64,000 nucleotides of DNA, from the NCBI GenBank assembly GCA_045578495.1, contig JAZNKI010000031.1, forward strand, positions 233-64,232, in the 5' to 3' direction. The stretch is from Faecalimonas sp. GTDB lineage: Bacteria; Bacillota; Clostridia; Lachnospirales; Lachnospiraceae. The notes under the pieces are model-generated. The model was not told the DNA's origin. It worked only from the letters and a program-made list of their open reading frames with translations, and made no database searches. Below are positions 39,869 to 46,105 of this stretch, in pieces (position 1 is the stretch's first letter; each line of letters starts with the position of its first letter). The position numbers were made by a program, and so were the translations under genes.

Positions 39869-41143
39869 ATGGTAAAAGCAGTAGTCGGCGCTAACTGGGG
39901 TGACGAGGGTAAAGGTAAGATCACGGATATGCTTGCTGAAAAAGCGGATTACGTTGTTCGTTTTCAAGGTGGAGCAAATGCAGGTCATACAATCGTAAAT
40001 AAATACGGGAAATTCGCACTTCACACATTGCCATCTGGTATCTTTTATGATCATACAACAAGTATTATTGGAAATGGTGTAGCACTTGATATTCCAGTAT
40101 TTTGCAAGGAAATTCAAACGGTGGTAGACCAAGGTGCTCCAATGCCAAAGATTTTGGTTTCAAATAGAGCACAAATCGTAATGCCATATCACGTATTGTT
40201 TGATCAATATGAAGAAGAACGTTTAGGAAAGAAATCTTTCGGTTCAACAAAATCAGGAATTGCACCATTTTACTCAGATAAATATGCAAAAATTGGTTTC
40301 CAAGTAAGTGAATTGTTTGATGATGAAAGATTGCTTGAAAAAGTTGAAAGTGTAGTAGAAAAGAAAAACATCTTGCTTGAGCATATGTATCACAAACCAC
40401 TTTTGAGTGTAGATGAACTTATGACAACACTTCGCGAATACCGCGATATGATTGCACCATATGTAGCAGATACATCGGTTGTGTTACATAACGCAATTAA
40501 GGAAGATAAAGTGATTTTATTAGAAGGTCAATTGGGAACATTAAAAGATCCAGACCACGGTATTTATCCAATGGTAACATCTTCTTCGACTTTAGCAGCT
40601 TACGGTGCAATCGGAGCAGGTATCCCACCATACGAAATCAAAGAAGTAATCACTGTGTGTAAAGCATACTCATCAGCAGTTGGTGCAGGTGCATTTGTAA
40701 GTGAAATCTTTGGTGACGAAGCGGATGAACTTAGAAGACGCGGTGGAGACGGCGGAGAATACGGTGCAACAACAGGACGTCCACGTAGAATGGGATGGTT
40801 CGACTGTGTAGCTTCTAAATACGGATGCCGTATGCAAGGAACAACAGGCGTTGCATTCACAGTGTTAGATGTACTTGGATACTTAGATGAACTTCCAGTA
40901 TGTGTTGGTTATGAAATCGACGGTGAAATCACAACTGACTTCCCTGTAACAGCGTTACTTGAAAAGGCAAAACCAGTATATGAAGTATTGCCAGGATGGA
41001 AATGCGAAATCAGAGGAATCAAGAAATACGAAGATCTTCCAGAAAACTGTAGAAATTACATTGAGTTCATTGAAAAACAAATCGGATATCCGATTACAAT
41101 GGTTTCTAATGGACCAGGAAGAGATGATATTATTTATCGTTAA
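39869..41143 (+). CDS. purA: Adenylosuccinate synthetase
   Basis: WGDEGKGK, GGANAGHT, GATTGRPRR. Confidence 0.98.
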   Translation: MVKAVVGANWGDEGKGKITDMLAEKADYVVRFQGGANAGHTIVNKYGKFALHTLPSGIFYDHTTSIIGNGVALDIPVFCKEIQTVVDQGAPMPKILVSNRAQIVMPYHVLFDQYEEERLGKKSFGSTKSGIAPFYSDKYAKIGFQVSELFDDERLLEKVESVVEKKNILLEHMYHKPLLSVDELMTTLREYRDMIAPYVADTSVVLHNAIKEDKVILLEGQLGTLKDPDHGIYPMVTSSSTLAAYGAIGAGIPPYEIKEVITVCKAYSSAVGAGAFVSEIFGDEADELRRRGGDGGEYGATTGRPRRMGWFDCVASKYGCRMQGTTGVAFTVLDVLGYLDELPVCVGYEIDGEITTDFPVTALLEKAKPVYEVLPGWKCEIRGIKKYEDLPENCRNYIEFIEKQIGYPITMVSNGPGRDDIIYR

Positions 41144-41159: not shown

Positions 41160-41194
41160 AGAGCGTTAAGGACGAGTGCCTTGACGCTCTTTTT
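41160..41194 (+). terminator. purA terminator
   Basis: AGAGCGTTAAGG-N7-CCTTGACGCTCT-TTTT. Confidence 0.8.
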
Positions 41195-41224
41195 GTTGGG
41201 CGTATGGGGGAGTTTGGGGCGCTG

Positions 41225-41508
41225 TGGCATATAGAATTGCGTTTTTGGCACAATTTATATGCCAAAATCTAGTGGTTTGAGTTGTGTTTTTTGTGATTTG
41301 GCATATAGATGAATGAAAAATTGCGAATCTATATGCCAGAAACAAGTGAAATGCTAATGAATTGTTGATTTTGAGGCGTATTTTGGCATATAGAAATATG
41401 ATTTTGGGGCTATCTATATGCCGGAAGGCATTGTAATAGCTATCGGATGTATATAAATCAGAGATTTTCGGCATATATATGATGGGAATTATGCGTTTCT
41501 ATATGTTG
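41225..41508. repeat. Array of four 40-bp inverted-repeat units (YGGCATATAG-N20-CTATATGCCR)
   Basis: Units at 41225-41264, 41299-41338, 41384-41423, 41469-41508; linkers 34, 45, 45 bp. Confidence 0.9.
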
Positions 41509-41607
41509 GAATAATTGTGGATGCAGAATTGTTTCGCGAAATTTACATATGCCCTTATGATTGTGAAGATAAAAATCACAAGAGATTCTTAATTAAAGAA
41601 AGGAGAG

Positions 41608-41726
41608 CAGATTGTATTACGGAAGAGGAATTAGCAGTACTTGCCATAGAACTTACTACATTGGGCGATATGTTGTCTGTGATTGCTACAAAGCAGGCTG
41701 TTTGTCAAAAAGAAAAGGAAGTATAA
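41608..41726 (+). pseudogene. Probable 5'-truncated small protein (DUF6774-like C-terminal half)
   Basis: ADCITEEELAVLAIELTTLGDMLSVIA follows an AAGGAG RBS with no in-frame start codon between them; family assignment from memory. Confidence 0.45.
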
Positions 41727-42345: not shown

Positions 42346-43449
42346 ATGCCATTTAAAATTATAAGAAACGACATTACTCGCATGAAAGTGGATGCGATTG
42401 TAAATACAGCAAACGAAGAACCAATGTATTCCACGGGAGTAGATTTTGCAGTATACAAAGCGGCGGGGGAAAAGGAACTTCTTGCTGAGCGAAAGAAAAT
42501 AGGTTTTATGAATGAGGGTGAAGTGGCGATTACATCGGGATTTAAATTGCCGGCAAAGTATATTATCCACGCCGTAAGCCCTTGTTACATAGATGGAACC
42601 TTTGATGAAGAAAAGAAACTTCGTTCCTGCTATAAAAAGAGTTTGCAATTGGCCTATGAGAACCATTGTGAGAGTATTGCGTTTCCGCTGATATCAACGG
42701 GGAATTTTGGGTATCCGAAGGAGGAAGCAATGCGTGTGGCAGTGGATGAGATTCATTCCTTTCTCTTAAATCATGATATGTTGATTTATCTAGTAGTGTT
42801 TGACACCAAGTCGACCGAGCTTGGATTGAAACTCAGTCCGAAACTAGAAGCATATATTGATCATAACTATGTGTGTGACAAACGACAAGAAGAGTATGGA
42901 AATCGGTACTTTGGTTCAGTTCCAAAGGACGCGTTGGAGTATAGCGAATATTTAGGACGTCGAGAAAAGGTAGAAAAACAACTGTTTCCAATGGAAAGCC
43001 GTTCTGTTGTAGAAACACCTATACTTGCGGAAAAGAATTGGGATGAGGATGAACTTTATGATTTCCTAGAAGAACACGAGACGGAGTTACATGAGAGAAT
43101 GAAGCATTTGTCAGATACGTTCCAACAGTATCTCTTTTATCTTATCGCAATAAAAGGACTTGTTCCGACAGAAGTCTATAAGCGAGCAATCATTACCAAG
43201 CAACTTTTTTCGAAGATTAAATTAAATCCACAGTATCATCCAGATAAAGGAACGGCCATGCGTTTGTGCGTAGGAGCGAAACTTAGTTTGGATGAAACAA
43301 AAGATTTGCTAGCAAGAGCAGGATATGCTTTGTCTCCTTGCGATAAAAGAGATATTATTTTCTCTTTCTTTATCGAGAACGGAATTCACGATATGATAGA
43401 AATTGATATTGCATTAGAAGAACATGGTCTTCCGTGTTTTATAGAATAA
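42346..43449 (+). CDS. Macro-domain protein fused to a C-terminal XRE-like HTH domain
   Basis: Macro: DIT..VDAIVNTAN, IIHAVSP, SIAFPLISTGNFGYP. C-terminal helical region TEVYKRAIITKQLFSKIK..LSLDETKDLLARAGY. Confidence 0.85.
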   Translation: MPFKIIRNDITRMKVDAIVNTANEEPMYSTGVDFAVYKAAGEKELLAERKKIGFMNEGEVAITSGFKLPAKYIIHAVSPCYIDGTFDEEKKLRSCYKKSLQLAYENHCESIAFPLISTGNFGYPKEEAMRVAVDEIHSFLLNHDMLIYLVVFDTKSTELGLKLSPKLEAYIDHNYVCDKRQEEYGNRYFGSVPKDALEYSEYLGRREKVEKQLFPMESRSVVETPILAEKNWDEDELYDFLEEHETELHERMKHLSDTFQQYLFYLIAIKGLVPTEVYKRAIITKQLFSKIKLNPQYHPDKGTAMRLCVGAKLSLDETKDLLARAGYALSPCDKRDIIFSFFIENGIHDMIEIDIALEEHGLPCFIE

Positions 43450-43453
43450 AAAG

Positions 43454-43484
43454 CAGGTCGCTTCTACGGCGACCTGATTTTTTT
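43454..43484 (+). promoter_or_regulatory. Palindrome CAGGTCGC-N7-GCGACCTG (terminator and/or operator)
   Basis: Followed by a T-tract; also overlaps the -35 position of an extended -10 TG-A-TATAGT (43492-43500) upstream of the vWA gene. Confidence 0.6.
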
Positions 43485-43542
43485 ATTCTTGTGATATAGT
43501 TGCCTCAGAAACAAGAAAAACAATTTTATGGAGGTAACAATT

Positions 43543-44214
43543 ATGAAAAAAGGATGTACAGAAATCGTATTTATTTTAGACAGAAGCGGGTCAATGCGAG
43601 GGCTAGAAAAAGATACTATCGGAGGTTATAATTCTCTTCTTGAGAAACAGCAAAAGGAAGAAGGCGACGTAATCGTCTCAACAGTGTTGTTTGATGATTG
43701 GACGGAAGTAATACACGATCGTGCAAAATTAGAAGAAATAAAACCGATGACAGAACGAGAATATTATGTGAGAGGTTGTACTGCACTTTTGGATGCAGTC
43801 GGTGGAGCAATTCACCATATTGGAAATGTTCACAAGTACGCGAGAGAAGAAGATGTTCCGGAAAAAACATTGTTTATTATTACAACAGATGGAATGGAAA
43901 ATTCAAGCAAACGTTATTCTTATGGAAAAGTAAAACAGATGATTGAAAGACAAAAAGAAAAATATGGTTGGGAATTTTTGTTCCTGGGAGCAAATATTGA
44001 TGCAATAGAAGTGGCAGGGAGATTCGGGATTGCACCAGAACGAGCTGTTAATTATGAGTGTGATAGTAAAGGAACCGAACTCAATTATCAAACACTAAGC
44101 CATGTAGTAAGCAAAGTGAGAAAGTGTACAGTTACTGAGATGAATCTGGCATTGAATGAAAATTGGAAAGAAGACATTGAAGCGGATTATAAAAAGAGAC
44201 ATGTAAAACGATAG
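43543..44214 (+). CDS. von Willebrand factor A (vWA) domain protein
   Basis: MIDAS DRSGS, G.TALLDA, IITTDGMENSS, FLGANID; GGAGG RBS. Confidence 0.9.
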   Translation: MKKGCTEIVFILDRSGSMRGLEKDTIGGYNSLLEKQQKEEGDVIVSTVLFDDWTEVIHDRAKLEEIKPMTEREYYVRGCTALLDAVGGAIHHIGNVHKYAREEDVPEKTLFIITTDGMENSSKRYSYGKVKQMIERQKEKYGWEFLFLGANIDAIEVAGRFGIAPERAVNYECDSKGTELNYQTLSHVVSKVRKCTVTEMNLALNENWKEDIEADYKKRHVKR

Positions 44215-44225
44215 GAGAAAAAGGA

Positions 44226-45197
44226 ATGAAAAATATTTGGTTAGATGGAATTATGGGTGTTGTTGTGGGAGATGCGTTGGGATTGCCAGTGCAATTTTTG
44301 AGCAGAGAAGAAGTTCGCAAAAACCCAATTACGGATATGCGTGGGTATGGGACTTTTAATAAACCTGAAGGGACATGGTCGGATGATGGAAGTTTAACAA
44401 TTGCTACGATGCAGAGCATTTATGATAAAGGTGGAATCGATTGTGAAGATATCATGGAAAACTTTGCTGATTGGTTGTTGGAGGGTAGATTCACACCGTT
44501 TGGGGAATCCTTTGATGAGGGGAATACTTGTGTGAAAGCAATTACACATTATGTGAAAAATCAAAATACGGAGACTTGTGGTGTCACAGGAGAATGGGCG
44601 AATGGAAATGGTGCGTTAATGCGAATTCTTCCGGTATGCCTGTATGGGTATGAAAAGGTACAAGAAGCAACTTTGAAAGAGGAAGACGTTTTAGCACTTG
44701 TACATCGAGTATCTGCGTTAACACACAATCACTTGCGTTCTCAGATGGCGTGTGGGATTTACTACTTTTTAGTAAAATCTATTTTGATAAGAAAATATGG
44801 TGCAAAAGAAGCGGTTCAAGTGGGGCTGAATGAAGCAAAGGCGTATTATCAGAAGGATATTAAGAATTATACAGAATTCTCTTATTACGGAAGGATGCTG
44901 GATGTGGAATCCTTTTCAGAATTGGCGGAACAAGAGATTAAAAGCACAGGTTATGTTGTGGATAGTTTAGAAGCTGCAGTATGGAGCTTCTTGAAAGGAA
45001 CAACTTTTGAAGAAGTAGCACTTGTAGCAGTTAACCTTGGAAAAGACACAGATACAGTCGGTGCTATTGCATGTGGACTCGCTGGGGTGTATTATGGTTA
45101 TGAAGGAATTCCGAAAAAATGGTTAGAAAAGATTCAGCAGAGAAATAAAATCGAAGAAAAGTGTGAAAGATTCGGAAACTGTCAAAAAGAGAACTAG
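44226..45197 (+). CDS. ADP-ribosylglycohydrolase (DraG/ARH family)
   Basis: VGDALG, WSDDG, GNGALMR, LTH, GKDTDTVGAI. Confidence 0.93.
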   Translation: MKNIWLDGIMGVVVGDALGLPVQFLSREEVRKNPITDMRGYGTFNKPEGTWSDDGSLTIATMQSIYDKGGIDCEDIMENFADWLLEGRFTPFGESFDEGNTCVKAITHYVKNQNTETCGVTGEWANGNGALMRILPVCLYGYEKVQEATLKEEDVLALVHRVSALTHNHLRSQMACGIYYFLVKSILIRKYGAKEAVQVGLNEAKAYYQKDIKNYTEFSYYGRMLDVESFSELAEQEIKSTGYVVDSLEAAVWSFLKGTTFEEVALVAVNLGKDTDTVGAIACGLAGVYYGYEGIPKKWLEKIQQRNKIEEKCERFGNCQKEN

Positions 45198-45206
45198 GAG
45201 GCAATT

Positions 45207-45359
45207 ATGAAGGGCGGAATATTTGGAAATATGTTTGATTTGAATCGTGACGGTAAGTTGGATGCGATGGAACAAGCGATGGATTTTATGCTTTTTGATG
45301 AACTGACAAGGCAAGAGCAAGAAGACAATGAAGAAGAATCTGACAATGATGAATTTTAG
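45207..45359 (+). CDS. 50-aa acidic small protein with an EF-hand-like loop (below ORF-track cutoff)
   Basis: GGAGG RBS; MKGGIFGNMFDLNRDGKLDAMEQAMDFMLFDELTRQEQEDNEEESDNDEF*; fills the gap between two + strand genes. Confidence 0.8.
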   Translation: MKGGIFGNMFDLNRDGKLDAMEQAMDFMLFDELTRQEQEDNEEESDNDEF

Positions 45360-45376
45360 ATAAAAGGAGAAACGAT

Positions 45377-46105
45377 TTGGAAATTATTATTGTAAGACAT
45401 TGTGAACCGAATTATGAAATTGATTCACTTACTCCGAAAGGATGGAGGGAGGCAGAATTATTATCCGATAAACTTTCGAAAATGGAGATAGATGAATGGT
45501 ATTGTTCGCCACATGGAAGGGCAAAAGACACGGCTTCTCGTACAATGGAAAAAGTGGGGAAGGAAGCAATTATCTATGACTGGCTTCGAGAATTTAAAGG
45601 GTTTGTTCAGTATGATTTCTTGGATAGTCCTACTCGCTGTTGGGATATGCTTCCGTCTTGTTGGACAAAGGAAGATGCGTATTATTCGAGAGATGATTGG
45701 TACAAGACAGAGTTGATACGAACAGGTAATTCGGAGGCAGAATACAAGTGGGTTACCGAGGAACTAGATGAATTTCTTGCTGCTAGAGGATATGTCCATG
45801 AAGGAAGACTGTTCCGCGTAGAGAAAGAGAATCACAAGAGGATTGTATTTTTCTGTCACTTCGGAGTAAGCTGTGTGCTATTGGCTCATTTACTGGGGGT
45901 GTCTCCATATATGTTTTTTCAAGGATTTGTTATGCAGCCAAGTTCTGTAACTAGTATTGTGACAGAAGAGAGAGAACAGGGTATCGCTTCGTTCCGCATT
46001 CGAAGTTATGGAGATATCAGTCATCTTTATGTGGCGAATGAGGAACCATCCTTTATGGCCCGCTTTTGCGAATGCTTTAGCGATGATACCACGCACGATT
46101 TTTAA
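45377..46105 (+). CDS. Histidine phosphatase family protein
   Basis: IVRHCEP (RHG-like), SPHGRAKDTA, LREF, CHFG; TTG start after AAGGAG. Confidence 0.88.
   Translation: MEIIIVRHCEPNYEIDSLTPKGWREAELLSDKLSKMEIDEWYCSPHGRAKDTASRTMEKVGKEAIIYDWLREFKGFVQYDFLDSPTRCWDMLPSCWTKEDAYYSRDDWYKTELIRTGNSEAEYKWVTEELDEFLAARGYVHEGRLFRVEKENHKRIVFFCHFGVSCVLLAHLLGVSPYMFFQGFVMQPSSVTSIVTEEREQGIASFRIRSYGDISHLYVANEEPSFMARFCECFSDDTTHDF

Follow-up and report, generated by a model that had tools for sequence, protein, structure and literature searches.

An orphan array of helically phased palindromes behind purA in a Faecalimonas genome and its candidate nuclease-like partner

Some bacterial repeats are paired with an enzyme. 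Repetitive extragenic palindromic (REP) sequences and bacterial interspersed mosaic elements (BIMEs), which together with the RAYT (TnpA_REP) transposases form "REPtrons", and the related REPINs are such repeat/enzyme systems (PMC2817692, PMC3116915, PMC3733652, PMC8266576); REP palindromes carry a conserved GTAG or CGTC tetranucleotide head (PMC3733652). Here, we describe an array of 4 palindromic units and 3 linkers (positions 41225..41508) in a 64-kb stretch of DNA from Faecalimonas sp. (the window: 64,000 nucleotides of contig JAZNKI010000031.1, assembly GCA_045578495.1), and we compare it with these and other systems. We think it likely that the array is an orphan copy of a dispersed family of phased palindromes, partnered elsewhere by a nuclease-like protein of ~265 amino acids whose dimers would bind, cleave, and spread the arrays.

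A second point of comparison is I-Bth0305I, an EDxHD/Vsr-like homing endonuclease that acts as a homodimer and leaves a footprint of ~60 bp around a pseudopalindrome (PMC3239194). It consists of an N-terminal recognition part with NUMOD motifs and a C-terminal Vsr-like nuclease (PMC3239194). Its homodimeric state, domain order, and footprint suggest a general plan similar to that of the ~265-residue protein.

Two further comparisons involve a mobile element and plasmids. TnsA is part of the mobile-element machinery of Tn7. The sopC/SopB, parC/ParR, and hipBA operators are plasmid centromere or operator arrays bound cooperatively by small dimers; their repeats are near-identical throughout and occupy a single locus.

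Geometry, dispersal, and recent gain of the arrays

The array begins ~30 bp downstream of the intrinsic terminator of purA (41160..41196, plus strand), which is formed by a 12-pair stem at 41160-41190 followed by TTTTTGTT. Neither the array nor any of its parts is assigned a strand. Each unit spans 38 bp and can be written GGCATATAGA-N18-TCTATATGCC or, equivalently, GGCATATA-N22-TATATGCC; it has also been written GCATATAA-N20-TTATATGC. Unit 1 (41226..41263) consists of GGCATATAGA, an 18-bp core of class A, and TTTATATGCC; with linker 1 (41264..41299, 36 bp), it sets a period of 74 bp, ~7 helical turns. Unit 2 (41300..41337; GGCATATAGA, a class B core, TCTATATGCC) and linker 2 (41338..41384, 47 bp) set a period of 85 bp, ~8 turns, and the period is again 85 bp for unit 3 (41385..41422; GGCATATAGA, a class A core, TCTATATGCC) and linker 3 (41423..41469, 47 bp). 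Unit 4 (41470..41507; GGCATATATA, a class B core, TCTATATGTT) is degenerate in its right arm (TCTATATGTT). All 4 units fit GGCATATA-N22-TATATGCC, with 1 mismatch in unit 4. A lone right-arm-like half-site, TACATATGCC, stands 36 bp past unit 4 (41544..41553, no strand assigned) and may be what is left of a fifth unit.

The octamer GGCATATA occurs 7 times in the window, every time inside the array, where 1.39 occurrences are expected and 0 of 100 shuffles reach 7; a reversed control pattern has 0 matches in the genome. Each unit comprises 2 inverted half-sites with the consensus GCAKMTAKA, their centers ~29 bp apart, and the consensus of the unit is TTtaGCATATAgAT...AATcTATATGCc.aAA, without a GTAG or CGTC head.

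An earlier note, made from the letters of the window alone, had described 4 phased inverted-repeat units behind the purA terminator, with periods of 74/85/85 bp and 2 alternating core classes counted by hand. The units are real (starts 41226, 41300, 41385, and 41470), the 40-bp unit of that note being the 38-bp unit plus 1 flanking base on each side, and the periods are confirmed. The core classes hold as well: over 18 bases, units 1 and 3 share 11/18 and units 2 and 4 share 10/18, compared with 3/18 for units 1 and 2. A flipped orientation of one class relative to the other, also proposed, is weakly suggested at best, since class B cores and reverse-complemented class A cores agree at just 8-9/18 (7-9/18 in a second count). 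The statement that the window encodes no cognate nuclease or transposase was correct, and none is found in the entire 80%-complete assembly either. The suggested search of the genome and its relatives for the unit pattern yielded additional copies of constant unit length.

The source genome (G000) is a 1.48-Mb metagenome-assembled genome (MAG) of the genus Faecalimonas, 80% complete. It holds exactly 1 further array, C23:19601-19861, with 4 units and periods of 64/85/74 bp. The 2 arrays align from first arm to last arm and show no homology beyond. Identity is 90% in the arms, 68% in the linkers, 42% in the cores, and 36% in the flanks; the difference between arms, on the one hand, and linkers and cores, on the other, suggests that the arms are under selection. 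The alignment contains 2 indels, 1 of 10 bp and 1 of 11 bp, with the C23 array shorter at linkers 1 and 3, respectively. The unit 3 cores match at 15/18, and linker 2, mostly identical to its counterpart, ends in a degenerate additional arm copy, GGCGTATTTT, where the C23 array has GGCATATATT. The order of core classes is A-B-A-B in the window and B-A-A-B in the C23 paralog.

Two features of the wider set of arrays point to double-stranded DNA as the form in which the units matter. The first is the period. In arrays with these arms, which we call GCATATA arrays, start-to-start periods fall into groups of 62-65, 73-75, 84-86, and 95-96 bp, except for 2 pairs at 80 bp. In the sister TACGGTG family, the groups lie at 62, 73, 83, and 93 bp (96 units), and further family members have periods of 53-54 and 63-64 bp. 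The classes lie ~10.5 bp apart, or one helical turn, a step that is relevant only if several units are read on one face of duplex DNA. The second is arm variation. The half-site tolerates GCA[T/G][A/C]TA on either arm, and the arms vary independently: at one variable arm position, GCATATA units show 15 A/G, 11 C/T, and 1 C/G combinations, and double changes that preserve pairing are no commoner than chance. At the variable arm positions of the TACGGTG family, 52 Watson-Crick pairs are observed versus 48 expected. Since arm changes are not compensatory, they fit double-stranded half-sites and not hairpins.

The arrays are dispersed within the genus and beyond it. They are clearly present in ~10 of the 47 Faecalimonas genomes searched, with 2-6 units per array and up to at least 7 loci per genome. 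A pattern scan for the array across 185,579 species genomes revealed same-arm arrays in Butyrivibrio, a Mageeibacillus MAG, a Clostridiales MAG, and several Fibrobacter succinogenes MAGs, such that 2 phyla have arms and unit length in common; in Fibrobacter, where the cores are GC-richer, the AT-rich arms are kept. Pseudobutyrivibrio xylanivorans DSM 14809 carries ~7 arrays with 31 units, and one of these arrays consists of 7 near-identical 74-bp tandem copies, a duplication of unit and linker together. Array sites include all kinds of intergenic region, among them those between convergent genes, and frequently follow closely on a terminator or tRNA gene; arrays occur in either orientation relative to their neighbors. 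The arm pair AAATACCTACTAAA...GGTAGGTA had no match in 151 family genomes, and a search of viral contigs gave a single match, judged to be chance.

The window array is a recent gain, as both sites occupied in G000 are without an array in the closest relatives searched. No array stands behind purA in G001 and G066, whose purA is 96% identical, nor in G032 (purA 89% identical), where purA is followed by sodC across an unrelated 200-bp spacer that lacks the DUF6774 open reading frame (ORF) found in the window. G066 has no array at the C23 site either; there, a terminator alone separates 2 convergent genes.

Two observations concern the edges of arrays elsewhere. In 3 Faecalimonas genomes (L026:3160-3212, L017:1450-1500, and L030:3345-3385), a perfect hairpin, CCGATACAGAAAGTTTCTGTATCGG, and a block, AAAATTTTTGGAAAAATTCACATG, precede the first unit of one array; they may represent a fixed element end or a terminator. 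In another genome, 3 near-identical array copies (G027:C9:491, C55:175, and C61:188; L019, L027) each lie <500 bp from a contig end and have similar upstream flanks; these copies are part of a longer, assembly-breaking repeat.

The adjoining gene and its predicted protein

GCATATA-type arrays lie directly upstream of a ~265-codon gene at 5 places: Faecalimonas G030:C28, G064:C180, and G064:C19; a Fibrobacter MAG (L122), where the gene follows 115 bp after 4 units; and P. xylanivorans (G221), where the array spans C40:71232-71573 and the gene 71669-72439. The adjoining proteins are 32-37% identical across the 2 phyla. The window array is shown to belong to an array family tied to this protein family. 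At G064:C180 (L039:6540-7336), the family gene is split into pieces of 218 and 82 codons at the T run CCATTTTTTTGAG, which reflects either a frameshifted pseudogene or a homopolymer sequencing error.

The protein family is widespread. Among 47 Faecalimonas genomes, 28 carry it, with up to 8 copies, and so do 28 genomes in a sample of 201 from the order; there are ~10 copies in P. xylanivorans and 2 per Fibrobacter MAG. All gene copies seen are free-standing, between housekeeping genes, and not in an intron or intein. Many family members are on very short contigs, and arrays and genes may therefore break metagenome assemblies.

Most paralogs examined adjoin an array that shares the general build but has private arms. 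Across the family, a unit is defined as 36-38 bp with inverted 8-10-bp arms and a core of 18-23 bp that is fixed in length and variable in sequence. Examples of private arm pairs are TACGGTGTG/CACACCGTA, TCATCGAGA/TCTCGATGA, CGCCTAG/CTAGGCG, GGTAAGA/TCTTACC, TACATACTAA/TTAGTATGTA, GGCAGACC/GGTCTGCC, ATGCATCC/GGATGCAT, and TACTACCT/AGGTAGTA. In a tree of 37 proteins, those with a common arm type form tight clades for 4 arm types. The TACGGTG type numbers 35-85 units per genome, spread over many loci, and its arrays flank the gene on both sides. At another locus, L254 (G267:C5), units with a 53-bp period also stand on both sides of a family gene (5 upstream and 9 downstream), and separate direct repeats of ~70 bp directly precede the start codon.

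The N-terminal half of the protein is predicted to be helical, and the C-terminal half to be a Vsr/PD-(D/E)xK-like nuclease. Neither Pfam nor NCBIfam has a family for it, and phmmer against PDB chains gave no significant sequence match; its matches form >6,177 clusters (90% identity), for which the only source name shown is "hypothetical protein". In the AlphaFold2 model (pLDDT 91), an alpha/beta domain follows a helix, a beta-hairpin, and a second helix of 36 residues. This modeled domain matches I-Bth0305I (PDB 3r3p; Z 8.9, root-mean-square deviation 2.7 Å over 90 residues) and TnsA (PDB 1t0f; Z 8.5, 114 residues), and Foldseek adds matches to Bax1, DrdV, MunI, McrC, and Hjc. By sequence, the C-terminal domain corresponds to the C-terminus of the PADLOC candidate PDC-S68 (E 7.6e-30). 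In plasmid and phage collections, the nuclease domain alone matches large "AAA ATPase/RecD-like helicase" genes; there is 1 full-length match, on an unannotated fecal contig. Residues R157, S158, K159, E161, P191, F193, E207, H208, and G210 are invariant, and D192 and D213 nearly so, a pattern that fits an intact active site.

Proposed mechanism, its weaknesses, and the alternatives

The data show the geometry, the dispersal, the recent gain, the gene association, and the nuclease fold; binding, cleavage, and the way of spreading are inferred. We propose that the N-terminal half probably forms dimers, and that these would recognize both arms of a unit, ~29 bp apart, on duplex DNA and line up cooperatively along one helix face. 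At its own gene, the array would probably control expression. The nuclease would probably nick or cut in or near the variable core, and repair after cutting could lead to unit duplication, to loss, and to copying into new intergenic sites. Nuclease action and repair would account for tandem growth, for the low identity of cores between paralogs, and for gene-less copies. The window array is an orphan in this sense, since no family member was found in the 80%-complete G000 assembly, and orphan arrays would relate to the partner protein much as REP sequences relate to RAYT transposases.

A broader proposition is that Vsr/PD-(D/E)xK-type nucleases, with up to ~10 paralogs per genome and private specificities, bind and propagate duplex phased arrays, and that they constitute a widespread, undescribed class of element. 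On this, we consider the case evenly balanced; such a class would be the double-strand, helically phased counterpart of REP/RAYT. The repeat-plus-nuclease system appears undescribed: the literature searched contained no paper on it, which is not proof of novelty. If the proposal is true, intergenic repeats of common gut and rumen bacteria (Lachnospiraceae and Fibrobacter) gain a partner protein, and >6,000 clusters of "hypothetical" proteins gain a DNA target. Related nuclease-fold proteins, each with a matched 8-10-bp half-site beside its gene, would provide a data set for a protein-DNA recognition code. The system would also supply a second repeat/enzyme pair, comparable with REP/RAYT on the question of how repeats persist in genomes.

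Several results weigh against the proposed partnership. A profile search of the contigs of G000 found no family member, in an assembly whose 80% completeness leaves absence unproven, and none was found in G067 (62% complete), which has at least 7 arrays; in several other genomes with GCATATA arrays, no gene adjoins such an array. Orphans may outlive the gene, the assemblies may have missed it, or gene and array may be less closely linked than proposed. GCATATA arms adjoin proteins of 3 separate host-specific clades, so that arm type and protein phylogeny are not one to one, and a divergent clade accounts for 10 of the 37 tree proteins, with arrays seen for only 2. No consistent target-site duplication accompanies the arrays, the longest words shared by left and right flanks matching the null distribution; cut-and-paste transposition is therefore not indicated. 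Finally, the ~10.5-bp step could in part reflect slippage of 10-bp arm copies, for example at C23:19740. Suggestive target-site duplications at C23 (GGGGCTGG) and at a Fibrobacter locus (L060, CCCTCGG) were set aside because they are not general across arrays.

Among described nucleases, I-Bth0305I is the best structural match. It is of similar size and likewise has a recognition region followed by a C-terminal Vsr-like nuclease; in the EDxHD comparison, the fold match to 3r3p (Z 8.9) is accompanied by conserved D192, E207, H208, and D213, candidate counterparts of the acidic and histidine residues of that class. The family differs in being free-standing and chromosomal, with arrays of sites instead of one disrupted target, and its N-terminal half is modeled as helices and a beta-hairpin, where I-Bth0305I has NUMOD motifs. 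TnsA shares the restriction-enzyme-like fold at a comparable structural match. However, no TnsB/TnsC-like partners were noticed beside the family genes, in the course of work that included no search aimed at them; element ends and target-site duplications were not found, and most arrays stand to one side of the gene only. The centromere and operator arrays of plasmids resemble the present ones as tandem, helically phased short repeats that adjoin the gene of a binding protein. Here, in contrast, only the arms are kept, the arrays are chromosome-wide, and the partner has a predicted nuclease fold.

Two other classes of array were considered and rejected. Judged by repeats and linkers, with no search aimed at cas genes, a CRISPR array does not fit, as only the repeat ends are conserved, unit and linker are co-duplicated in P. 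xylanivorans, and linker lengths jump by 10-11 bp. A link to hip modules was raised by the two-unit pattern, which also matches Bacteroidota (~40 loci), a Dehalococcoidales MAG, and an Ignavibacteria MAG. These loci (L070:3889-4130, L064:580-680, and ~40 more among L045-L124) have the half-site TGCATATAA/TTATATGCA at a strict 40-bp period. At 7 of the loci whose ORFs were listed, the array stands upstream of an XRE-type helix-turn-helix gene, a HipS-like gene of ~110 amino acids, and a HipT-like kinase gene of ~320 amino acids; it has the appearance of a conserved operator array serving toxin-antitoxin modules of the hipBST type. HipA and HipS genes are unlinked to the Clostridia and Fibrobacter arrays: no HipS-like gene turned up in G000, G030, G221, G222, or G223, and hipA loci have no GCATATA arrays. 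We treat the 40-bp-period arrays as a separate system.

The alternative that survives best, although we regard it as unlikely, is a host regulatory operator array, through which a factor, whether the nuclease-fold protein or another, controls neighboring genes as a regulon; in the window, these would be the DUF6774 microprotein and sodC. Arrays often occupy the gap that separates a terminator from the promoter or gene beyond it; beside family genes they stand just upstream of the start codon, and their phasing is typical of cooperative regulators. Yet the C23, L041, and L087 arrays are between convergent genes, where there is no promoter; the genes adjoining arrays are unrelated in function; the closest relatives are without an array at the same loci; and copy number per genome extends from 2 arrays to 85 units. 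The window array is not to be read as a regulator of purA or sodC without evidence.

Far less probable is a classical REP/BIME element, whose units would be single-stranded DNA hairpins moved by an HUH (RAYT or IS200-like) transposase. The likeness is considerable: in both systems, short palindromic units cluster in intergenic regions, often behind terminators; one or a few cognate nuclease genes serve each repeat family and are flanked by its repeats, the TACGGTG arrays on both sides of their gene reproducing the layout of a RAYT among REPs; several gene-plus-repeat families coexist in one genome; and gene-less clusters, as well as gain and loss between relatives, are found. The differences concern the enzyme and the form of the DNA. 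The Y1_Tnp domain (PF01797) has no match in G000 and is present in only 1 of 5 array-rich congeners, with genome incompleteness as a caveat; the partner here is a Vsr/PD-(D/E)xK-fold protein instead of an HUH Y1 transposase. The unit has 8-10-bp arms around an 18-23-bp variable core, no tight GC-rich hairpin, and "loops" of 18-22 nt unlike those of REP hairpins. Arm changes are uncompensated, and spacing by whole helical turns, meaningless for hairpins, points to duplex DNA. Copy number, at the range given above, is lower than for REP sequences. As the HUH enzyme, the GTAG or CGTC head, and the maintained hairpin all fail, the family is not a member of REP/RAYT.

We give equally little credence to a non-coding RNA, in which transcription of the array, for example by read-through from purA, would yield hairpins, formed directly or by processing, whose 20-nt loops vary. 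Folded as RNA, the array is more stable than its shuffles (z = -5.4), as expected of any set of inverted repeats, but the minimum-energy fold joins arms of different units and does not form unit hairpins. There is no covariation, and an Rfam scan of the region found nothing near threshold, only sub-threshold miRNA-type matches (E 1.4-9). Arrays lie behind a strong terminator and in either orientation to neighboring genes. Bovine gut metatranscriptome contigs cover only the purA of relatives (<95% identity) and nothing past 41290.

Least probable of all, and disfavored, is a decaying local tandem duplication with neither partner nor function: arrays do grow by tandem duplication of a 74-bp unit plus linker, and cores and linkers drift, but arms are 90% identical while cores are 42%, arms and unit length recur in 2 phyla, and unit length is constant, with an inner gap of 22 in 233 units and at most 17 units for any other gap, a count biased by the route through which loci were found.

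The proposal of a nuclease-partnered duplex array bears on the 3 readings offered in the earlier note, whose interpretation is partly supported overall. Phased sites for a dimeric DNA-binding protein gain indirect support from the helical-turn periods, the 10- and 11-bp indels, and the uncompensated arms. The idea of a REP/BIME-like element with an enzyme encoded elsewhere was right in its logic, in that arrays are dispersed, gained and lost, and tandemly amplified, and wrong in identity, with a Vsr/PD-(D/E)xK-like protein in place of RAYT/Y1. Processed hairpin RNAs find no support, as the arms do not keep their pairing and Rfam has no matching family.

Genes around the array in the window

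Upstream of the array are purB and purA, the latter at 39869-41143 (Pfam Adenylsucc_synt, E 1.5e-164). A candidate sigma-54 promoter in unit 1 (TGGCAT-N-TTGC), assessed by eye, was rejected: the spacing departs by one from that expected, and the other units do not share the motif. Downstream of the array is the small DUF6774 ORF (41517-41726, 69 codons, E 1.1e-6), whose putative GTG start falls within the region of the lone half-site; a good ribosome-binding site, AAAGGAGAG, is at 41598, with no in-frame ATG, GTG, or TTG after it. The ORF is followed by the Cu/Zn superoxide dismutase gene sodC and then, at 42346-46105 of the window, by genes for a Macro-domain protein, a protein without a Pfam match, and an ADP-ribosylglycohydrolase.

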